The notes: generated by a model from the letters alone, not told the origin. 64,000 nt of DNA from Nitrososphaerota archaeon (GCA_028867755.1 JAGWFT010000001.1:740727-804726); one strand, 5' to 3'; shown: positions 1 through 9,120, numbered from the stretch's first letter. Program-made: numbers and translations.

Positions 1-581
1 CCTAGTAACATTCCTCTGCGATAGATCCTACCTTTGCAAGATTCAGATATGGATCCAATTTGACCTTCTATATGGATAACACCTCCTGACATGTAAGTGC
101 CAACATGACCGCCTGCACTACCTTGTATTGTAATCTCACCTCCTGACATGTTATATCCGACGTAATATCCGGCACTACCTTGTATTGTAATCTCGCCTTC
201 TGACATACGTTCCCCAACATAATCCCCTACGTTACCTTGAAATGCAATTTTACCCTGTTTGAGTCTATAACCAATGCAATCAACAGGGCAACCTAGATTG
301 GGAAAGTCGAGCGTTACTATGTCATTCTTTTTTATTATCTTGTTTATTGCTGCTGAGATGAAGAGACCAGCAGTCCAGTAGTTTGCCTTGTCTGAGAAGG
401 ACTCTCTGTTTATCAAGCCTGCAAAAATTGACACATCGTTGAGGGTGAGGCCAAGTCTTTCAATCTTTGACGACGCGGATTTGTAAGACTCTTCAGAAGT
501 TAAACTGTTGGCATCAACAATGTATTCTCTGAAGATTTTGGCAATGGCGTATGTTATGTCGTTTGAGTTTTCTCTGGCCAC
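1..581 (-). CDS. GXGXG beta-helix protein (FwdC/glutamate synthase C-terminal-like) with an N-terminal helical domain; partial, runs off the window edge
   Basis: Manual translation from GTG 581 stays open to position 1: VARENSND...YWTAGLFISAAINK...VDCIGYRLKQGKIAFQGNVGDYVGERMSEGEITIQGSAGYYVGYNMSGGEITIQGSAGGHVGTYMSGG. Absent from the ORF track, presumably because no stop lies in the window. Confidence 0.8.
   Translation of the reverse strand, partial: MARENSNDITYAIAKIFREYIVDANSLTSEESYKSASSKIERLGLTLNDVSIFAGLINRESFSDKANYWTAGLFISAAINKIIKKNDIVTLDFPNLGCPVDCIGYRLKQGKIAFQGNVGDYVGERMSEGEITIQGSAGYYVGYNMSGGEITIQGSAGGHVGTYMSGGVIHIEGQIGSISESCKGRIYRRGMLL
121..207. repeat. 57-bp-period coding tandem repeat (19-aa GXGXG unit)
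   Basis: ccttgtattgtaatctc at 121-137 and 178-194, with similar continuations. Confidence 0.8.
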
Positions 582-727
582 ACATCATGGAATGTTTTGT
601 CCCTCTTTAGTTTTAATATCTTGATTTTCCATAGTCTTGTTTATTGTATACACAAACTAGCAAAAAATATACTGATAATGCCTGTAAACAAGAGCAACAA
701 TATTAGCCACATCTACGTATCACTCCG

Positions 728-1144
728 ATGTTCCAAAACATACTGGTCGCAGTGGATGGTTCGGAATCTGCAAGTAAGGCATTCAAAAGAGCCGCCTACC
801 TTGCTCAAAGATGCAATTCCAAGATAGATTTGGTTCATGTGGTACAGTGCGAGGTTGGAGGTGACAGTGCCAATACCTTTGAGATGATAGAGGATCTCAA
901 AGACAAGGCCAAAAGAATGCTTGAGGAATACAGAGTTGAGGCTATGAAAAATAATGTACCGATACAGATAACCATAATGCAAGGCGATCCTGCCAAGACA
1001 ATAATTGAGATTGCAAAGGCAAAAAGTTACGACCTTATCATTATGGGGACAAGAGGTAGGTCATCTTTTCAGGAATTGTTAATTGGCAGCGTCTCACAAA
1101 AGGTGATGCATCATGCAAGCTGTCCCGTAATGGTCGTGAGATAG
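728..1144 (+). CDS. Universal stress protein (UspA family)
   Basis: NILVAVDGSE start, G-D-P-A, IIMGTRGRS...LIGSVSQKV...CPVMVVR motifs. Confidence 0.95.
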   Translation: MFQNILVAVDGSESASKAFKRAAYLAQRCNSKIDLVHVVQCEVGGDSANTFEMIEDLKDKAKRMLEEYRVEAMKNNVPIQITIMQGDPAKTIIEIAKAKSYDLIIMGTRGRSSFQELLIGSVSQKVMHHASCPVMVVR

Positions 1145-1220
1145 CATAATTTTAGAGATAAAGTCTTACAGGATCAAGAGTCTGCATTAAAATCAGACTT
1201 TCATAACCACATTTCTTTTG

Positions 1221-1511
1221 CTACTGCCAAGTTATCTTTAGGAATACCAGGGAGCCAGCAAGCTGTACTATGCGAACAATCAGAACAAACGGCAAGAGTG
1301 CAGCCTGATACAAGTCAAACATGACGAAGTATGTGTATACATTGATTGCATTATCTAAAAAGAGCATTGCAACAAAAAAGATCATTCCAAGGTGAACCTG
1401 TGATTTTGTTTTTGAATGCATCTTTACAAAGGTAGCAATTAGAACGCTGAATACTCCCATGTTTGCCATTGCAACAATGGCACAGTATGGAATAATTGTG
1501 ATCAAACTCAT
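1221..1511 (-). CDS. Small 3-TM Met-rich membrane protein of unknown function
   Basis: Three hydrophobic stretches; ends LVFLKITWQ; 12 bp downstream of the wHTH pair, same strand. Confidence 0.75.
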   Translation of the reverse strand: MSLITIIPYCAIVAMANMGVFSVLIATFVKMHSKTKSQVHLGMIFFVAMLFLDNAINVYTYFVMFDLYQAALLPFVLIVRIVQLAGSLVFLKITWQ

Positions 1512-1523
1512 TCACCCTGTAAT

Positions 1524-1943
1524 TTACTTGTCTCTGTACAAGTTTGCAGCAAGCTCATCAAAGATAGCAATGTTTACCTCAAGAAAAGTGGAAAGAAAAT
1601 AGGTTGTACCATACTTTTCACCCACGTGTGACACTAGGTTATTTTTTTCGAGAACTCCAATGTGATGCTGTATTGCCCTATAGTTTAGTTCAAGCTCTTT
1701 TGCAAGTTGGTGTGCATTGAGCGGTGACTTTTTCAATGCAAGAACCATTCTTATTCGGTTCTGACCTCCTCGAGAATTTGCAAATACCATCCATAGTAAA
1801 TTCTTTGCATAGGGTAACTCTGTGTCCTTTTGGTTCGAATCTTCTACAGTTCTATGATTGTGATATGATGATACAGTATCAAATGTGCGCATAGTGGCAT
1901 CTTTACGTGATAACATAAATACATTTTTCAAGATTGAGTGCAA
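1524..1943 (-). CDS. ArsR-like winged helix-turn-helix regulator (paralogue 2; start uncertain, TTG 1943 or a later ATG)
   Basis: PYAKNLLWMVFANSRGGQNRIRMV...NAHQLAKELELNYRAIQHHIGVLEKNNLV...GEKYGTTYF. Confidence 0.85.
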   Translation of the reverse strand: MHSILKNVFMLSRKDATMRTFDTVSSYHNHRTVEDSNQKDTELPYAKNLLWMVFANSRGGQNRIRMVLALKKSPLNAHQLAKELELNYRAIQHHIGVLEKNNLVSHVGEKYGTTYFLSTFLEVNIAIFDELAANLYRDK

Positions 1944-1946
1944 ATT

Positions 1947-2252
1947 CTATTCCTTGGCTCCATAGGCTTTCGACACGATTTCATTATATGCTTCTATATT
2001 GGCTTCAAAAAAGGTAGAAGGGAAATAGGTTGTACCATATTTCTCACCGACTTTTGTAATGAGGTTATTTTTTTCTAGTACCTCGAGATGATGCTGTATT
2101 GCCCTATAGTTTAATCCTAAATCATTTGCCAACTGGTTGGCATTGCGTGGAGACTTTTGTAATGCAATCATGATCTTGACTCTATTTTCTCCGCCTCTTG
2201 AGCTGGCAAAGATAAAAAAGAGAAGATTTTTTGCATATGGCAAGCTCGGCAT
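1947..2252 (-). CDS. ArsR-like winged helix-turn-helix regulator (paralogue 1)
   Basis: PYAKNLLFFIFASSRGGENRVKIM...NANQLANDLGLNYRAIQHHLEVLEKNNLI...GEKYGTTYF. Confidence 0.9.
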   Translation of the reverse strand: MPSLPYAKNLLFFIFASSRGGENRVKIMIALQKSPRNANQLANDLGLNYRAIQHHLEVLEKNNLITKVGEKYGTTYFPSTFFEANIEAYNEIVSKAYGAKE

Positions 2253-2337
2253 TTGAACGATTAAACGTCAACGTAATGCGGTTAAAGATGTTATGAGCAA
2301 GTGACCAAATCTTGTATTAAAAAAAGAAAAGGAAGGG

Positions 2338-3708
2338 TTAGGAAACGACTATGGTTCCACGCATCTGTGAATGGATCATACATGCATAATCGTATGTTCC
2401 AGGCTTGTTGAAAGTAAACGTGAATGTCTTTCCTGGTTTGAGGAATCCACTATCAAAGGTTCCATCCGCACTGGTAGTTCCTGGCTTGACTGATGTTACA
2501 GTATGTGTGGCACCATCGGTGTTCACAAAAGTTACAGTTGTTCCTGCCTTGATGTTAAGCACATCTGGCGTGAAGAATGGTGATTCCAAGCCATTGATGT
2601 ATACTGTGTTTGGTGGTGGATTGGCATTTGTGTCAGTTGTGGATGATAACGCACTTCCAGTTGGTTCTGAGACAAACACGTTAAAGTCTGTGTATGCCGC
2701 TCCCCACATGTAGTTTGAGAGAGCGCTTGGTTGAAGTTTAACATCCATAACATATGGCCCTGAACTTGGAAAAATCTCAGTCAATGACTCTACACCAGTG
2801 TGACCATGGACTGCTCCATTCATAGCAAGTGCTCCTTCGACTGGTGCAGATTGTGCTACAATGTAACCTCCAGTTGATGCAGTAACTTGCAGGTCAGGAT
2901 GTATAATCATGGAATGATCCTGAGCTTTTGTCACAGTAAAGACAAAAGTTACAGGCTGTCCTGCGACAATTTTGTTCGAGGTCGTGCTAAACTCTAAATT
3001 GACTGCAGTTCCTGGAATTGTTCCATTGAGTGTATGTGTCTGGTCTATGTTTTGCACATAAACTGGAAACTCAAACTCTCTTGCTCCAAAATTATTTTGT
3101 GGATCCTTGGCAAAGTCCTTTGGACTTCCAGATAGCATTGTATGAGTCCATCCTTTAGGAGTTGGTTCCAATCCGCCCATTGTAGTTCCAATTGATGATA
3201 CAGTCAGGTATACAGTACTTTCACCTGCTGTTGGAAAAGCTACACTAAAGCCCATGTTTCCAACGTGGGAATGTCCAGTTGTTGTTTTGTAGACAAGGTT
3301 TCCATTTGGATCTTTTACTGCTATTGCCCAATCAACATGGCTAAGCTTTGCTCCAGAGACTGAGTCTTTTACATGCATCTGGATTGAGGCTAGGTTATTT
3401 GTTTGAATCATTGGGGTCGCAGTAAAGTCTACTGTGACATTGTCAGATGTCTTTGATAGCGGCGTATTCTGTGTATCGCTGTCCTTCATTTCATTTGACT
3501 GGCCAGAGCTCATCGAATCTTGCCCATACATCATTGCTGTCATATCATGATGTGGTGCGGTCATCGAATTGTTGTCTGCAGTCATTGCACTGGCTTGCCC
3601 TAGATCTTGCATCTTGTTGTCATGCGACATAAGGTCAAGCGGTACAATCATTGCAAGTACAGCAACAGTTGCTATAACTATTGTTGTAATAGCTAAGTTT
3701 GTTTGCAT
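2338..3708 (-). CDS. Exported multidomain copper protein: Met/His-rich linker, two His-motif beta domains, C-terminal plastocyanin-like cupredoxin
   Basis: N-terminal hydrophobic anchor; C-terminal ATHTVT...YACMIHSQMRGTIVV gives type-1 Cu ligands H, C-x2-H-x2-M. Confidence 0.85.
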   Translation of the reverse strand: MQTNLAITTIVIATVAVLAMIVPLDLMSHDNKMQDLGQASAMTADNNSMTAPHHDMTAMMYGQDSMSSGQSNEMKDSDTQNTPLSKTSDNVTVDFTATPMIQTNNLASIQMHVKDSVSGAKLSHVDWAIAVKDPNGNLVYKTTTGHSHVGNMGFSVAFPTAGESTVYLTVSSIGTTMGGLEPTPKGWTHTMLSGSPKDFAKDPQNNFGAREFEFPVYVQNIDQTHTLNGTIPGTAVNLEFSTTSNKIVAGQPVTFVFTVTKAQDHSMIIHPDLQVTASTGGYIVAQSAPVEGALAMNGAVHGHTGVESLTEIFPSSGPYVMDVKLQPSALSNYMWGAAYTDFNVFVSEPTGSALSSTTDTNANPPPNTVYINGLESPFFTPDVLNIKAGTTVTFVNTDGATHTVTSVKPGTTSADGTFDSGFLKPGKTFTFTFNKPGTYDYACMIHSQMRGTIVVS

Positions 3709-3738
3709 GACATGGTTCTGCTTATAAAATTATATAGC

Positions 3739-3773
3739 AATATTTCAAAATCAAGTGTAAATTATATGCAAAT
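3739..3773. promoter_or_regulatory. 35-bp motif copy 1, upstream of the 456-aa cupredoxin gene
   Basis: aatatttcaaaatcaagtgtaaattatatgcaaat; 32/35 identical to 4501-4535; directly upstream of a TATA-like tatataat on the minus strand. Confidence 0.7.
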
Positions 3774-3933
3774 CTCTAGAATTGTTTTATGGTCGGGAAA
3801 GTAGTCAATTATTTGATGCTAGATATGAACAAAGTTATGCAGATTATTGATAGACCTTATTGTATAAAAAATTAAAAAAAATAACATGATGCTATTGCCA
3901 GCGTGATCTGCTGATTATATTGCGGCATCATAC

Positions 3934-4464
3934 TTAGTTGATTCTCGGAAGGACCACTATCTCGCCACGCATGTTTGGCTCGTGCATTGAACACCAAAAG
4001 TCGATTGTTCCAACATTGTCTGCTGTAAAGGTAATGGTTTTCATCTCTCCTCTATGAATGTCAAACTGGGGAGCAATTCCGTCTACAGTTATCATATGTT
4101 CTGGTCCCTGGACATCTACAAAGTTGAGAGTAACTTGGTCGCCTTGGTTTACAACAATTACTGAAGGTGCAAACATGTACTGCCTTACCTTCCATCCTCC
4201 CATACTATCTATTTTTTTTATTACCAAGCCGCCTCCAGAGGGAAGGGTTGAGTTTGGATATGGCTCTGACGGGTGATCGGAGGCTGGATAAATGCTGGTT
4301 ATACCATCTAGGTGGACTGTTGCTATGTAGAATGTCTTTTGTGACGCGGCAGAAGCCGTATTGGTTTGTCCGAACATTTGTCCTTCAAGAGAAACCGTGG
4401 CAATGACTCCAGCTATTGCAGCTATTGTCAGGCCAAGAATTACACTCTTGTTTAGATTTTTCAT
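3934..4464 (-). CDS. Exported single-domain cupredoxin (blue copper protein)
   Basis: Signal peptide; YMFAPSVIVVNQGDQVTL, EHMITVDG, FWCSMHEPNMRGEIVV (H, C-x2-H-x3-M). Confidence 0.85.
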   Translation of the reverse strand: MKNLNKSVILGLTIAAIAGVIATVSLEGQMFGQTNTASAASQKTFYIATVHLDGITSIYPASDHPSEPYPNSTLPSGGGLVIKKIDSMGGWKVRQYMFAPSVIVVNQGDQVTLNFVDVQGPEHMITVDGIAPQFDIHRGEMKTITFTADNVGTIDFWCSMHEPNMRGEIVVLPRIN

Positions 4465-4500
4465 ATAGTCAAAAAGTAATTTATTAGAAAGCTATTTAGT

Positions 4501-4535
4501 AATATTTCAAAATGATGTGTAAATTACATGCAAAT
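4501..4535. promoter_or_regulatory. 35-bp motif copy 2, upstream of the 176-aa cupredoxin gene
   Basis: aatatttcaaaatgatgtgtaaattacatgcaaat; begins 37 bp from the start codon (copy 1 is 31 bp). Confidence 0.7.
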
Positions 4536-4572
4536 TACCTTTTTATCACTAGTTGACAATGTTAGTTCAACA

Positions 4573-4590
4573 GTAATTTGCATGTAATTT
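4573..4590. promoter_or_regulatory. Inverted partial motif copy 3 (perfect 18-bp inverted repeat of 4521-4538)
   Basis: gtaatttgcatgtaattt is the reverse complement of aaattacatgcaaattac; followed by ttttgaaa and a TTTATG TATA-like box at about 4602. Confidence 0.7.
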
Positions 4591-4628
4591 TGAAAAATCT
4601 CTTTATGTTATTATGATATTAGAATCTC

Positions 4629-4677
4629 GGTTCGATTCATTTAACATGTTCTCAACCCCGTACGATTGAATCGAACC
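4629..4677 (+). other. RNA-like hairpin (11-bp stem, 27-nt loop) in the long leader of the repeat-protein gene
   Basis: ggttcgattca (4629-4639) pairs with tgaatcgaacc (4667-4677). Confidence 0.45.
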
Positions 4678-4815
4678 AACTAAAATTTTCAAAAATTCGA
4701 AATAAAACTATTATTTGTTTCCAGTAATATGTCGCATCATGCAGTTGTGATTTGTATAAAATTTGTATGTGAATTCGAAATATCGCTAAATAATAAATTT
4801 TTAATCTTGCTGTCA

Positions 4816-5475
4816 ATGACTAAAAAAATACTATTGGGAATTGCTATGGCAGCAATTGTGTTGGCCTTGGGGATAGGAACACAAAACTTTGCTCTAGCAA
4901 TGACAGACAATGCACAAGGTGGTGTTGCTAAAAATGTATCATCTCCAACATTTGTATCATCCACTGATTCCATGATGTTAGTGGCAACTTCGCCCACTGC
5001 TAAAGGCGGTAAGGCTACTTTCGCATTGGTACCAAGACCTGCTGAAGGGATAGATGGAATACCAGTTCCAAAACAAGCTGCACCTGATATGATACTGGTT
5101 GCAACATCAAATGGTAGACATATCAGTTATACGTTAGTACCAAGACCCATTGAAGGGATAGATGGAATACCACTTCCAAAACTAATTCAGCAGAACTCAG
5201 AGACTACAGTATCCTCTCCCAAATCTACTGATCCAAGTCCTATGATGCTTGTGGCAATTTCTCCTACTAAAAAGGGAGGAAGTACTACCTTCATGTTAGT
5301 GCCAAAGCCAGTCGAGAATGTAGATGGAATACCAATGCAAAAACAGACAAGTCCTGACATGATACTGGTTGCACAGCCATCGCCCAATGGCGGTAAGCCT
5401 ATCTTCACATGGATACCAAAACCTGTTGAAGGTATAGACGGTATACCACTCACAAAATCGCCTCCAAATAGCTGA
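4816..5475 (+). CDS. Secreted 219-aa protein with four internal repeats (M[MI]LVA...G...[FY]x[LW][VI]P[RK]PxE[GN][IV]DGIP), unknown family
   Basis: MTKK plus hydrophobic core plus ALA signal peptide from ATG 4816 (track start 4729 adds a non-signal-like extension); repeats start at 4972, 5089, 5242 and 5359. Confidence 0.85.
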   Translation: MTKKILLGIAMAAIVLALGIGTQNFALAMTDNAQGGVAKNVSSPTFVSSTDSMMLVATSPTAKGGKATFALVPRPAEGIDGIPVPKQAAPDMILVATSNGRHISYTLVPRPIEGIDGIPLPKLIQQNSETTVSSPKSTDPSPMMLVAISPTKKGGSTTFMLVPKPVENVDGIPMQKQTSPDMILVAQPSPNGGKPIFTWIPKPVEGIDGIPLTKSPPNS

Positions 5476-5505
5476 TCTCCTTCAGTGTAAAACCAGTGGA
5501 AAAAA

Positions 5506-5537
5506 TAAAACACGAAAGATCAATCTCTCGTGTTTTA
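5506..5537 (+). terminator. Hairpin downstream of the repeat-protein gene (terminator or operator)
   Basis: taaaacacga / tcgtgtttta 10-bp inverted repeat; a T-rich tract follows at about 5575-5584. Confidence 0.4.
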
Positions 5538-5701
5538 GAAAGGTAATGCACTAAAATGGTTGGAGTCCTCCCCTCTTCTTTTTAAATTTGGAACATACCT
5601 GAGATAACCTAGCTCAATCAACAAAACACTAATGGGTCTGAAATTATACTAAAAGACAATACAATGTCATTTCTTCAAATAAAAAAGGTCACAGATATCT
5701 C

Positions 5702-6757
5702 ATGACAGATCTTTATCGTGTACTGCCAGAGGAGGTAGACAAGCTTGTAACAAGTATGGAGCAGCCGCGTTATCGAGCAGATCAGCTACTCCACATGCTG
5801 TACAATGAGTTTCCAAAGGACATATCTTCAATGCGCCAGCTTCCCGCAGAGATGAGAAATGCACTATCTACGGCAGGATACACAATTGGGTCTGCAGACG
5901 AAGTTCACCGTGTTGTAAGCGAGGATGGGCAGACAACAAAGCTTCTTCTCAAGCTAGGTGACGGAACTCTTATCGAGACAGTACTCATGCAATATCGCAA
6001 GAATAAGGGGCGTCCAAGATCAACTGTATGCGTCTCAACCCAGGTTGGCTGCCAGATGGGTTGCACATTCTGCGCTACCGGGCAGATGGGTTTTGAGCGA
6101 AATCTCAAGGCAGAAGAGATAGTCGCCCAAGTATTGCACTTTGCTTCTGTTCTCAGAGAACGGGGAGAGCATGTCACCAACCTTGTCTTTATGGGGATGG
6201 GGGAGCCCCTGGCAAATTATACAGAAACTATCAGGGCAGTCAAACTACTGACAAATGCACGTGCGTTTGGTCTTGGACAAAGACACATTACAATTTCAAC
6301 AGTCGGTGTCATGAAAGAAATAGATCGGCTTGCAGACGAAGACCTGCAGATAGGACTTGCAATCTCTCTTCATGCACCAAACGACGAGCTGCGTAGAAAA
6401 TTAGTACCAACTGCAGGACCGCATTCGGTAGGAGACTTGATCTCAGCTACGCGAAGCTATTTCAAGAAGACAGGTCGTCGTGTTACATTGGAATATGCCC
6501 TGATAAACGGTGTTAACGACTCACCAGAGATTGCAGCAGAACTTGCGACACTCTTGAAGGGAAATGGGGCTCATGTTAATCTCATACCGGTGAATCCAAC
6601 TGCTGGTGGTTTTCAACGTCCAAGATGGAAACGCATAACAGAATTCGAGCGAATACTAAGGGAATCTGATGTGAATTGTACTGTAAGGGTGGAAAAAGGG
6701 TCAGAGATCTCTGCCGCCTGCGGTCAACTAAGGACAGACACAGCAAAGAATCTCTAG
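5702..6757 (+). CDS. rlmN: Radical SAM RNA methyltransferase, RlmN/Cfr family
   Basis: CVSTQVGCQMGCTFCATGQMG (CxxxCxxC), FMGMGEPLAN, ISLHAPN, NLIPVNP, C-terminal ISAACGQL. Confidence 0.93.
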   Translation: MTDLYRVLPEEVDKLVTSMEQPRYRADQLLHMLYNEFPKDISSMRQLPAEMRNALSTAGYTIGSADEVHRVVSEDGQTTKLLLKLGDGTLIETVLMQYRKNKGRPRSTVCVSTQVGCQMGCTFCATGQMGFERNLKAEEIVAQVLHFASVLRERGEHVTNLVFMGMGEPLANYTETIRAVKLLTNARAFGLGQRHITISTVGVMKEIDRLADEDLQIGLAISLHAPNDELRRKLVPTAGPHSVGDLISATRSYFKKTGRRVTLEYALINGVNDSPEIAAELATLLKGNGAHVNLIPVNPTAGGFQRPRWKRITEFERILRESDVNCTVRVEKGSEISAACGQLRTDTAKNL

Positions 6758-6873
6758 TCTATCCTACGATTTTTTCTGCACATAGATTATTGATATAATT
6801 ACGTTATGGCTTGCTCGAGGCCAGAGCAAGATGATATCAATGAGAATTTATTCTCCTCCATTCAAAACTAATC

Positions 6874-7155
6874 ATGCATAAAGATAGAGGAGTCTGTAAG
6901 GGTCTCTGTAAACAGTACAAGGTTAGAAAACCAAGAGATGGAACCAGCCGTTATTTGTCAGATCAGGTGAGATGTCAGATTTGTGGAATTTTTATGGCAA
7001 GGGAGGGATGCCACGATATCGAAGAAAAACCTGTGACTAGTGAAACCGTAGGCCTATATTGTAATTGTTGCAACTGCATGGTAAGATCAAAACCACGAAA
7101 CAAACCAGGCATGAAAAATCCTCAAAACGATTCACCAGAAAAATATCAAGAATAA
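6874..7155 (+). CDS. Small Cys-rich zinc-binding protein
   Basis: CKGLC...RCQICGIF...CNCCNC..RSKPRNK; pattern recalled from Nitrososphaerota small proteins. Confidence 0.7.
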   Translation: MHKDRGVCKGLCKQYKVRKPRDGTSRYLSDQVRCQICGIFMAREGCHDIEEKPVTSETVGLYCNCCNCMVRSKPRNKPGMKNPQNDSPEKYQE

Positions 7156-7230
7156 AGACATTCCAAATATTTTGATACTTAGATGTGAACTTGTTCTCCA
7201 AATTTATGTTGCCATTAATTTTTAGGTATC

Positions 7231-7506
7231 TCAAGTGGGACTACAGGTATAATTTGCATATTTTCCTTCCAACCCAGCAGCTCTTGATATGTGAGATTCT
7301 TGAGGATCGTTTAGTATTGCAAGATGACAAATTCCAACCCTATTGTTGCTGTCACGTAGATGATTGGTTAGTGCAATAGCTGCCTCCACTGACGAGCCTG
7401 CAGGATGTGCCTTTTCAAACAAGATGTGGCCTATTGCTTCAGGCACAACCATCATCAATATTACAAGTATAACAAACTTGTTAATTGATTTCTTATTGAT
7501 ATTCAT
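7231..7506 (-). CDS. Small membrane-anchored protein with a Cys pair (paralogue of 15846-16163)
   Basis: ATG 7506: MNINKK-TM-PEAIGH...SSVEAAIALT...CHL...SRAAGLEGKYANYTC; alignable along its length with the second copy. Confidence 0.75.
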   Translation of the reverse strand: MNINKKSINKFVILVILMMVVPEAIGHILFEKAHPAGSSVEAAIALTNHLRDSNNRVGICHLAILNDPQESHISRAAGLEGKYANYTCSPT

Positions 7507-7562
7507 GTATCTATTATAACAATATGTTTTGATATTGTAGCCGGAAGTAAATTCAAAAGAGA

Positions 7563-7579
7563 ATTTCCAATACGGAAAT
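7563..7579. promoter_or_regulatory. Palindromic site ATTTCC-N5-GGAAAT, copy 1
   Basis: atttccaatacggaaat in the divergent intergenic region. Confidence 0.6.
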
Positions 7580-7614
7580 AAAAATGACAAGAAATTGCCA
7601 AAATATTGTTTGAA

Positions 7615-7631
7615 ATTTCCGATTCGGAAAT
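7615..7631. promoter_or_regulatory. Palindromic site ATTTCC-N5-GGAAAT, copy 2 (perfect 17-bp palindrome)
   Basis: atttccga-t-tcggaaat, 52 bp from copy 1 and 30 bp before the Lrp-GAF ATG. Confidence 0.65.
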
Positions 7632-7661
7632 CCATATTACCAGCACTGCACAATTACAGAC

Positions 7662-8657
7662 ATGTTGGACGAAATTGACAAGATAATCCTTTCACAGCTT
7701 GGGAAAAATTCCAGAACCTCATCACAAGAAATAGCCCACACGTTACAAGAAATTGGCTTTACAATTACTGATAGGGCAATAAGGCAGCGCCTCTCAAGAC
7801 TTGACAAGAAGAAAGTAATTCTTGGATATTCTGTCATATTAAACCCAAATCTAGTATCAGAAAGAATTAACAGGACAATCCTGATCAAATTTAAATTTTC
7901 AAAGAATCAGCACGATTCAACTGAACGACTTGCCGAATATTTGAATTTGTCACCGTATTGTATTTACGCTGCAAGGTTAAGCGGTGACTTTGATTGGATT
8001 TGCCATTTTGTTTTTTCATCAACAGAACAGTATGATCTTGAAACGAATAACCTTTTGAACAGATTTTCAGATCTAATTGCAGATTTTAGATCGTACGAAT
8101 CAAAGGCAATCAAGTCGTTACCTTATGCGTTATCAAATGAACATTTGCTACATGACAGAAAGCTTCAGGTTTATTCAATTCTAAATTCAATAAAAAAATA
8201 TGATAATCTCAAGGACAGACTTTCGTCCATCGCAGAGAGTCTGGTAAAATATTTTGATGCTAAATTTGCAAGAATTTGGTTTTACGACAAGAAATCAAAA
8301 TCCCTAGTTTTAAAATACAGCGCAGGAAAGTACAAAAACACAGAGGGCGAATTCTCGAAAATACCATTAAACTCCCAAAAGATTGGATATGTTGCAAGGA
8401 CCAAAAAGCCTGCAGTTTCAAACGATATTGCTCATGATCCTAGAATAAAATACCATGAATGGGCAAAAAAGGAAAAACTCAAATCATTTGCAGGATATCC
8501 ACTGCTTTACAAGGGTAATGTGGTGGCAGTTTTAGCCATGTTTTCCGAGAAAGTTCTCTCGCCTACCGATTTTGAGGTTTTGGGTATGTTCTCAGAGGAG
8601 ATATCAAAGGAACTTTCCGGGTTTTTTGAGGCAGAAGAATTTCTGAAACGTACATGA
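7662..8657 (+). CDS. Lrp/AsnC family regulator fused to a C-terminal GAF domain
   Basis: LDEIDKIILSQLGKNSRTS..EIA..L......AIRQRLSRL (AsnC HTH), RAM-like LSGDFDWI; C-terminal ARIWFYD...IGYVARTKKP..SNDIAHDPR...KSFAGYPLLYKGNVVAVLAMFS (GAF). Confidence 0.88.
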   Translation: MLDEIDKIILSQLGKNSRTSSQEIAHTLQEIGFTITDRAIRQRLSRLDKKKVILGYSVILNPNLVSERINRTILIKFKFSKNQHDSTERLAEYLNLSPYCIYAARLSGDFDWICHFVFSSTEQYDLETNNLLNRFSDLIADFRSYESKAIKSLPYALSNEHLLHDRKLQVYSILNSIKKYDNLKDRLSSIAESLVKYFDAKFARIWFYDKKSKSLVLKYSAGKYKNTEGEFSKIPLNSQKIGYVARTKKPAVSNDIAHDPRIKYHEWAKKEKLKSFAGYPLLYKGNVVAVLAMFSEKVLSPTDFEVLGMFSEEISKELSGFFEAEEFLKRT

Positions 8658-8718
8658 CAGTTGGACTTGTAGACTGACAAGTGTCTGAAAATCCTCTTTC
8701 ACCAGTAAACTTTATCAT

Positions 8719-9120
8719 TTGCCAACGATATTACCTTGCACGGATTACAAATCTCTCTTCGATAAGGTTGTAGCAATAGACCCAAAGATTCGCTTTGTGA
8801 CAATATTTGATATGAGTGGAAAGATAATGTTCAGCGAACATCGCAAGGGGGTAGAAAATATTCTCACCTCAGAAGAAAGCCAAAAATCACTCCAGCTTGC
8901 AATAACTGCTTGGAAGTCAAGAAACGAAGTATCAAACAAGATAGGCAAAGGCAAGTATGCACTTGTAGAATATGAAAAGATAAAACGAATCACAATGCCG
9001 CTTGATTCAGATCACATCTTGTATATTACAACTGATGTTGAAGCTGATCATGGACCAATAATTTACAGAGCCTTGCGATTAAAGCAAGATGCGTTACATA
9101 ACCCAGAAGGAATGCCATAA
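8719..9120 (+). CDS. Roadblock/longin-like small protein (DUF6659-like)
   Basis: IRFVTIFDMSGKI...IGKGKYALVEYEKIKRITMPL; family recalled as expanded in Nitrososphaerota. Confidence 0.7.
   Translation: MPTILPCTDYKSLFDKVVAIDPKIRFVTIFDMSGKIMFSEHRKGVENILTSEESQKSLQLAITAWKSRNEVSNKIGKGKYALVEYEKIKRITMPLDSDHILYITTDVEADHGPIIYRALRLKQDALHNPEGMP

Follow-up and report, generated by a model that had tools for sequence, protein, structure and literature searches.

Genes and features of the locus

The window analysed here is a 64-kb stretch of a Nitrososphaerota archaeon (GCA_028867755.1 JAGWFT010000001.1:740727-804726), part of a 1.64-Mb Nitrosotalea-like genome with 38% G+C (G000) whose public relatives carry the labels Nitrosotalea or Nitrosopumilaceae. 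Between positions 1221 and 5475 it contains a cassette encoding two type-1 cupredoxins (cup176 and cup456), two winged helix-turn-helix (wHTH) regulators of the ArsR fold (wHTH1 and wHTH2), a small membrane protein with three transmembrane segments (TM) and a secreted repeat protein. Promoters with a shared architecture serve the two cupredoxins, the repeat protein, a hairpin RNA and the wHTH2-TM bicistron. An earlier note on this DNA had listed five minus-strand genes and one divergent repeat gene, and open reading frame (ORF) calls and domains confirmed all six. The features of the cassette are as follows (aa, amino acids; BRE, transcription factor B recognition element; Ig, immunoglobulin).

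1221-1511 (-): TM, membrane protein with three transmembrane segments, 96 aa; second gene of the wHTH2-TM bicistron
1524-1892 (-): wHTH2, ArsR-fold regulator, 122 aa, with an N-terminal extension of 22-25 aa; likely start ATG 1892
1908-1945 (-): short-form promoter/operator of wHTH2-TM; one ATTTGCAC unit, CAATCTTGAAAAAT, TATA box TTTATGTTAT
1947-2252 (-): wHTH1, ArsR-fold regulator, 101 aa, no Cys; HTH_5 domain; no motif upstream
2253-2337 (-): cup456-wHTH1 spacer; conserved T-run right after the cup456 stop codon, remainder not conserved, no motif
2338-3708 (-): cup456, 456 aa; N-terminal membrane anchor, Met/His-rich linker, two Ig-like beta-sandwich domains, C-terminal amicyanin-like type-1 cupredoxin
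3730-3773 (-): long-form promoter/operator of cup456; two 11-bp ATTTGCAT/ATTTACAC units, ATTTTGAAATAT, TATA box CTATATAA
3934-4464 (-): cup176, 176 aa; anchored or secreted type-1 cupredoxin with ligands H, C, H, M
4492-4535 (-): long-form promoter/operator of cup176
4576-4612 (+): short-form promoter/operator facing right; ATTTGCATGTAATTTTGAAAAAT, CTC, TTTATGTTAT
4629-4690 (+): candidate small RNA; 11-bp stem GGTTCGATTCA/TGAATCGAACC, variable C/U-rich loop of 27 nt, T-run
4750-4795 (+): long-form promoter/operator of the repeat gene
4816-5475 (+): secreted repeat protein, 219 aa; signal peptide and four copies of a unit of about 36 aa

Since TM begins 12 nt past the wHTH2 stop codon with GGTGA in front, the two genes are taken to form a bicistron. 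The listed wHTH2 ORF, 1524-1943(-), uses a TTG start at 1943 that would read across the promoter of wHTH2 itself; this extension is likely spurious and ATG 1892 the true start, and in about 11 loci the wHTH2 start codon lies 26-31 nt past the start of the TATA box. The right start of the repeat gene is ATG 4816, not 4729. The T-run in the cup456-wHTH1 spacer appears terminator-like.

A promoter motif shared by five transcription units

A repeat search brought out the shared element: direct repeats of 52 nt at 3722-3773 and 4484-4535 are 85% identical, an inverted pair of 18 nt at 4521-4538 and 4573-4590 is perfect, and a further arm lies at 1910-1946. In its generalised layout the element has one or two 11-bp ATTTG(C/T)A(T/C) units immediately ahead of a BRE-like TTGAAA(A/T)AT, followed by a TATA box. 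The long form (consensus ATTTGcAtatAATTTgcAtnTnAtTTtGAAATATnnCTAAATAaT) has two tandem 11-bp ATTTGCAT units, the BRE-like TTTGAAATAT and the TATA box, and precedes cup456, cup176 and the repeat gene; the short form (consensus ATTTGnAnncAATcTTGAAAAATgTaTTTATGTTAT) has one unit and precedes wHTH2-TM, where it begins 2 nt past the wHTH1 stop codon, and the non-coding hairpin. Every start codon, and likewise the hairpin's first base, lies 27-35 nt past the start of its TATA box, a spacing that implies mRNAs without a leader or nearly so; the mRNA of cup456, with 29 nt between the TATA start and the ATG, would be leaderless.

A degenerate 23-mer matched five times in the window, all within 1900-4800, against 0.05 matches expected, and none of 100 shuffles reached five. 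When the entire genome was scanned with gaps allowed, the composite motif turned up only in the cassette locus and on a 508-bp contig, C5 (L004). The earlier note had placed the motif just upstream of the TATA-like boxes of both cupredoxins, as the 52-nt direct repeat and its position relative to BRE and TATA confirm. Its tally was incomplete, with two copies overlooked, one at 1923-1945(-) inside the spurious TTG extension of wHTH2 and the other at 4750-4783(+) directly before the repeat-gene start. What it had described as an inverted partial copy facing the repeat gene is in fact the short form at 4576-4598(+), followed after 27 nt by the hairpin.

Orthologous promoters in G000 and five other genomes (G001, G155, G187, G201 and G191/REEA54), plus fragments, provide 18 long-form and 17 short-form instances. 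As the motif-free cup456-wHTH1 spacer has diverged between genomes, except for the T-run, the near-invariance of the motif promoters is not merely a matter of recent common ancestry. Contig C5 carries a variant wHTH1/wHTH2 junction, at 77% identity, in which the short-form promoter is 91% identical to that of the cassette, as opposed to 77-79% for the flanking coding DNA. These comparisons support the motif as a cis-element under strong selection. Gene duplication alone was considered as a source of the promoter likeness and rejected: beyond a 36% identity of the cupredoxin domains of cup456 and cup176, the three cargo genes have no relationship, yet their promoters are about 85% identical and conserved across genomes.

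Contig C5 comes either from a related strain caught in the assembly or from a second copy of the cassette that remained unassembled. A REEA25 contig (L034) has exactly the short-form promoter of C5, and REEA25 has three differing junction contigs. In G191/REEA54 an extra long-form promoter lies ahead of a 181-aa secreted protein with a PEFG C-terminal sorting signal (L035 814-1359, corresponding to L140 from about 11536 onward). This protein has no metal motif, and the gene behind it encodes a secreted protein of 162 aa that belongs to no known family.

Distribution of the cassette

The cassette is a self-contained accessory island of about 4.3 kb present in a subset of Nitrosotalea, ammonia oxidisers of acid-loving habit. 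Orthologues of cup176 at least 82% identical occur in six of the 59 genomes of the genus (G000, G001, G155, G187, G201 and G191), each of which also has cup456, wHTH1, wHTH2 and TM, with all the motifs in orthologous positions; the repeat gene is present in five of them, G155 being without it. The single genome with only a 51% identical cup176 homologue has neither the twin wHTH-TM arrangement nor the motifs. Further fragments spanning the twin junction were found in other metagenome-assembled genomes. In translated comparisons similarity starts at the TM stop codon and ends at the stop codon of the repeat gene, and the flanks differ: this genome has Usp and an RlmN-like gene there, G001 an aminotransferase and G155 yet other genes.

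Cargo proteins and the candidate small RNA

The two copper proteins score 43.8 and 36.3 bits against Cupredoxin_1 (threshold 27), with amicyanin and plastocyanin matches, which identifies both as type-1 cupredoxins. The ligand set H..C-x2-H-x2-M is present in all six cup456 orthologues, and H..C-x2-H-x3-M in five of the six cup176 orthologues. The Ig-like domains of cup456 have conserved HSH and HGH motifs. This middle portion of the protein has only 27 representative clusters among 1.84 billion proteins, and its structural model (predicted local distance difference test score of 84) matched generic tandem beta-sandwiches at template modelling scores of 0.2-0.3. A YtkA-like/FixH identity was not confirmed for it, as the Atlas lead was only 0.84 and Pfam PF13115 gave no match even at E<=10. 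The repeat protein, built of units reading M-[MI]-LVA..GGK..F.LVP.P.EGIDGIP, has no Cys and almost no His, and matched no Pfam or NCBIfam family.

The hairpin at 4629-4690 is a candidate small RNA whose transcription is suggested by the promoter in front of it: its first G lies 27 nt past the TATA start, equal to the spacing of the wHTH2 ATG. Stem and spacing are kept in G001, G155, G187 and G201, with a loop that differs in length and sequence, and in REEA54/G191 the stem is longer and includes one compensatory change, G-C to A-U, and one G-U wobble. Folding z-scores range from -3.8 to -5.3 in four genomes. Because G155 keeps promoter and hairpin though it has no repeat gene, the hairpin is a separate unit. 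No other copy of the element exists in the genome, and a search of positions 1-9000 with Rfam covariance models at E<=1 gave no match for it. If transcribed under the same operator as the protein genes, it would be a rare small RNA embedded in a regulon among ammonia-oxidising archaea.

The twin regulators and their putative membrane partner

Both regulators are ArsR-type wHTH proteins, with 39.5 (wHTH1) and 31.2 bits (wHTH2) against Pfam HTH_5 (PF01022, gathering threshold 22). They are less alike than the "near-identical" of the earlier note, being 64% identical in protein and 71% in DNA. The metalloregulator model NF033788 of NCBIfam gives them only 31.9 and 28.7 bits, under its cut-off of 55, and the metal ligand set of ArsR/SmtB proteins, alpha3N Cys or alpha5 Asp/His/Glu, was not found in either. 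In wHTH1, which has no Cys, the only His residues are the HH of the recognition helix, and the alpha5 region reads LEVN..AF.EI. As the recognition helices are nearly identical in the two proteins (Y-[RK]-A-I-Q-H-H), both could read the same unit. The N-terminal extension of wHTH2 carries an S-[SP]-Y-H motif in three genomes.

The same genome encodes a third paralogue, wHTH3, at C24:10463-10753, with the gene for a 94-aa TM3 behind it. A maximum-likelihood tree placed wHTH1 and wHTH2 as two monophyletic sister clades (support 100/96) among Nitrosotalea wHTH3 sequences. This placement indicates a single copying of the pair and then a tandem duplication of the wHTH, earlier than the split of the six genomes, all of which keep both copies. 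In metagenomes, wHTH1-type proteins that are at least 67% identical make up about 70 clusters. Database names for the family are generic ("winged helix-turn-helix transcriptional regulator", "ArsR/SmtB family"), and a literature search found no paper characterising the wHTH/TM family or describing this regulon.

The earlier note's wHTH and membrane protein proved to be a conserved two-gene unit, with TM directly downstream in 67 of 92 wHTH loci, which span Nitrosopumilus, Nitrosarchaeum, Nitrosotenuis, Cenarchaeum, Nitrososphaera and Nitrosopolaris. The single wHTH-TM pair is the common state across ammonia-oxidising archaea, co-oriented with a gap of 12-30 nt in most loci; in some lineages (L019, L020 and L022) the two genes are divergent and not co-transcribed. 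The TM family is present in 107 of the 151 genomes of the class, with weaker matches in other Thermoproteota. Regarding the unpublished genomes in the comparison, G017 provided one copA-adjacent example (L006, L028), G010 and G011 each provided one of many wHTH3-TM3 pairs (L012, L015) and G496 is present only in a CopD tally; no conclusion rests on any of them.

TM itself has no Pfam or NCBIfam family match. In the family alignment N17 is invariant and G42, N54, P74 and T94 are near-invariant, so that two invariant or near-invariant Asn residues lie within the membrane. Position 53, in mid-membrane, is commonly His in the family and Asp in the cassette copy. The only cytoplasmic surfaces are a conserved basic loop, K-x-x-x-K-T-K-x-Q, and the C-terminus. 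The protein had been called Met-rich, which holds for this copy and not for the family, where Met/His positions are only 56-81% conserved. A complex prediction for wHTH2 and TM, with alignments of 27 rows, gave a score of 0.00, which weighs neither way.

At the ancestral wHTH3 promoters no operator shared across the family was found, and nothing is conserved in Nitrosopumilus. One Nitrosotalea subclade has a palindrome, TTTACAATTGT(T/A)AAA, about 55 nt upstream of wHTH3 (L003 about 1835-1850, in the copA-wHTH3 intergenic region; L006, L038, L048), and also at a locus that lacks copA. The half-site of the palindrome, TTTACA, is similar to the ATTT(G/A)CA units of the cassette, and the palindrome may be the ancestral operator.

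Relation to known systems

The cassette is a variant of the theme of an ArsR-type regulator with a membrane partner, for which SdpR-SdpI of Bacillus subtilis would be the nearest known working model by analogy. In that system too, the gene for a small ArsR-fold wHTH lacking a metal site immediately precedes one for a small polytopic membrane protein, and the two form an operon that is autoregulated, as it would be here. Unlike that system, the cassette comes from an archaeon; it encodes a pair of paralogous regulators, its operator consists of direct repeats upstream of BRE/TATA, and its regulon comprises copper proteins and an RNA. The SdpR model (NF033789) scores weakly, with 27.4 and 26.5 bits against a cut-off of 100, and the wHTHs are not members of that family. 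SdpI, with six transmembrane segments and about 207 aa, has no detectable homology to the TM family, with three segments and 94-96 aa.

The wHTH fold is shared with the ArsR/SmtB proteins CzrA, SmtB, NmtR and CmtR, of which CzrA and NmtR are among the best sequence matches in the PDB. However, those regulators usually bind a 12-2-12 inverted repeat and not direct 11-bp repeats, and they have the alpha3N Cys and alpha5 Asp/His ligands that the cassette wHTHs lack. The best solved-structure match to the family profile is Phr of Pyrococcus furiosus (PDB 2p4w), over the wHTH core, but the match (E 1e-6) covers only 52 residues of a 202-aa protein with a C-terminal dimerisation domain, and with 18-23 bits the wHTHs stay below the cut-off of 320 set for the NCBIfam Phr model. 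The CopR/CopT-CopA system of Sulfolobus (an Lrp-type HTH with a TRASH domain, and a P1B ATPase) is, as the cassette would be, concerned with copper homeostasis in Thermoproteota, and copA with an HTH_AsnC+TRASH gene adjoins wHTH3-TM3 in this genome; its regulator differs in fold and sensing domain, and no TRASH domain was found in the cassette wHTHs. With CopR present, this genome already has a copper sensor for export.

Ammonia-oxidising archaea depend on copper proteins for their energy metabolism. The regulation of copper-related genes in these organisms is an open question (PMC7785015). The copper-limitation stimulon of Nitrososphaera viennensis (Reyes et al. 2020, PMC7785015) includes the ArsR protein NVIE_014280 and a membrane protein beside CopC/D, and a motif, TTCSGSMTTTGWACYANT, at -35 to -70. 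Like the cassette, it combines an ArsR-type wHTH co-transcribed with a small membrane protein near exported copper proteins, and a motif common to a number of genes, not all of them on one strand; the cassette units also contain the 8-nt core ATTTG(T/A)AC, a match of only 8 nt that may be due to chance. In contrast, NVIE_014280 (L144 8934-9452) gives no match to the hidden Markov model of the wHTH family at E<=1, has a double-wHTH architecture (HVO_0163_N + HTH_5) and has a different, His-rich partner, and is an analogue of the cassette wHTHs, not a relative. Transfer of the N. viennensis copper transcriptomics was considered and dropped, as the CopC/D region, located in G466, showed NVIE_014280 and its neighbour to be a different pair.

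This other pair, a small His-rich membrane protein (PH..HPSM..H..LH) and then a double-wHTH regulator, recurs at L144 8934-9861 (in the N. viennensis-like G466), L116 3443-4337 and L142 13247-14000. In N. viennensis it lies beside CopC/D and is induced by copper limitation (PMC7785015). It looks like a separate family of membrane protein plus regulator.

Regulatory model and alternatives

We give about even chances to the explanation that the locus is a regulon cassette, in which the wHTHs bind the units of five promoters of one architecture and receive their signal via TM. wHTH1 and/or wHTH2 would bind the ATTTGCAT units, and a pair of units spaced by one helical turn would let two wHTH molecules sit on the same face of the DNA. 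If so, wHTH2-TM would be autoregulated. Because the sites lie upstream of BRE/TATA, activation, through recruitment or stabilisation of TFB/TBP, is more likely than blocking. The signal is probably perceived through TM, since the wHTHs carry no recognisable ligand site, and TM could hold or release the regulator at the membrane, as SdpI does with the ArsR-type SdpR. More weakly, the signal may be a state of the cell envelope linked to copper or redox, since exported copper proteins make up the cargo and since paralogous pairs adjoin genes for Met-rich DM13 proteins, DsbD/thioredoxin, NicO and CopA.

Copper as the signal is a reasonable guess that we would expect to hold roughly one time in three. 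In its favour, two of the three exported protein cargoes carry type-1 copper sites, the cup456 linker is rich in Met and His, and type II wHTH-TM pairs (Nitrosopumilus, Nitrososphaera) adjoin secreted Met-rich DM13 proteins. The type I pair of Nitrososphaera is grouped with DsbD_TM, AhpC/thioredoxin and DM13 genes, and other neighbours of wHTH-TM pairs encode NicO, DUF4331, thioredoxin and a His-rich secreted protein, as well as CHRD and Spondin_N proteins. The earlier note had suggested that such pairs sit beside copper proteins in other archaea; a neighbourhood check upholds this for subsets near Met-rich DM13, DsbD/thioredoxin, NicO and CopA, but not for most pairs.

Met-rich acidic runs (MMEDTMMED..., MMDDTMMDDD) occur in the DM13 proteins at L115 4887-5465, L117 6834-7652, L123 4632-5549 and L129 2675-3355. 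In G000, a CopA-type P1B ATPase with two HMA domains and a CPC motif, together with an HTH_AsnC+TRASH (CopR/CopT-like) regulator at C24:13283-13699, lies at C24:10852-13699 (L031 7453-10300) between wHTH3 and the radical S-adenosylmethionine (SAM) gene that is its usual divergent neighbour. Here, in G017 and at L038, copA is divergent from wHTH3 and its own HTH_AsnC+TRASH regulator follows each time; copA-copR looks like an inserted copper-export cassette. The copA adjacency was downgraded as evidence for copper once this regulator gene had been found right behind copA, here and in relatives.

Several points weigh against the model or against copper as its signal. Binding of the motif by the wHTHs and their interaction with TM are both predicted from sequence, and the usual logic of ArsR operons would make TM a regulated effector and not a sensor. 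TM has short loops only, with almost no extracytoplasmic or cytoplasmic surface, and the alignment of its family contains no invariant or conserved set of Met, His or Cys. The wHTHs are without any canonical ArsR/SmtB ligand and fall under the metalloregulator cut-off. In G155, cup176 (L124 12727-13257) has lost its copper ligands, with His changed to Tyr and Cys to Ser, while it is otherwise 85% identical and retains its long-form promoter. Most ancestral pairs lie in housekeeping synteny, with a radical SAM gene at 57 loci, an RNase H-like gene at 55 and an acyl-CoA synthetase gene at 55; the copA-wHTH3 adjacency says little for copper because copA brings its own HTH_AsnC+TRASH regulator; and NVIE_014280, the only experimentally copper-responsive ArsR of an ammonia oxidiser, is outside this wHTH family.

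The main rival is a classical ArsR-type operon, in which the wHTH would be an autorepressor that senses its ligand directly, at a site unrecognisable from the sequence, TM would be the effector (a small oligomeric channel, an exporter or an immunity protein), and the cupredoxins, the repeat protein and the RNA would be extra members of the regulon. ArsR/SmtB operons are as a rule laid out with the regulator first and a membrane effector behind it, and the co-orientation and narrow gap of most wHTH-TM pairs, the short TM loops and the S-[SP]-Y-H motif of the wHTH2 extension, which could hold a ligand, are all in keeping with it. We nevertheless regard it as rather unlikely, given that the wHTHs have no Cys, alpha3N or alpha5 ligands and score under the metalloregulator cut-off, that archaeal repressors usually bind over or after the TATA box and not upstream of BRE/TATA, and that wHTH and TM are divergent in L019, L020 and L022. 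Still less probable, and indeed hardly to be expected, is that the motif is read by a TFB/TBP paralogue or a regulator encoded elsewhere, the wHTHs regulating only themselves or nothing in the cassette: the conserved block does take in the BRE-like TTGAAA(A/T)AT and unusual TATA boxes, but the motif occurs nowhere else in the genome, so that an outside factor would serve the cassette alone, and it is always inherited together with the twin wHTHs, one copy lying at the promoter of wHTH2 itself.

The signal need not be copper; the cassette could also respond, for instance, to envelope redox or oxidative stress, to pH, to a different metal or to remodelling of the surface, with the cupredoxins acting as alternative electron carriers or surface proteins. 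This is possible, if doubtful. The DsbD_TM, thioredoxin/AhpC, NicO, DUF4331, CHRD and Spondin_N neighbours of the paralogous pairs speak for it, as do the PEFG surface protein behind the extra promoter of G191, the scarcity of His and absence of Cys in the repeat protein, the dedicated CopR/TRASH regulator already in the genome and the ligand-free cup176 of G155. Against it stand the type-1 copper sites in two of the three protein cargoes, one of which has a Met/His-rich linker of the kind typical of Cu(I) binding, and the Met-rich DM13 proteins that accompany type II pairs.

The regulon-cassette explanation has a wider form that we think unlikely, in which the wHTH-TM pair would be the missing general envelope/copper signalling device of ammonia-oxidising archaea, a ligand-blind ArsR-fold regulator set by a TM that senses within the membrane through Asn17, Asn54 and H/D53. 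In this locus the duplicated wHTH1/wHTH2 pair, bound head-to-tail on the 11-bp direct repeats, would activate exported copper-handling proteins and a regulatory hairpin RNA. If true, the device would be a new class of archaeal signal transduction with a fully defined operator. The cassette is a clean test case, with two small soluble regulators, one membrane protein of 96 aa and a two-form operator defined by 35 natural instances, and as its five target promoters fit on one 4.3-kb fragment, in-vitro work is possible without a cultured host. The parent wHTH-TM operon occurs in most sampled ammonia oxidisers, including genera with cultured members, so that a result would transfer to an uncharacterised group-wide regulator.

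The right edge of the cassette

Just to the right of the cassette, at 5702-6757 of the window, lies a gene for an RlmN/Cfr-like radical SAM methyltransferase with a G+C content of 0.48, against about 0.40 in the flanks. At the edge itself, 30 nt past the stop codon of the repeat gene, there is an inverted repeat at 5506-5537 (TAAAACACGAAAGAT/ATCTCTCGTGTTTTA) that could be a terminator hairpin or a boundary element.

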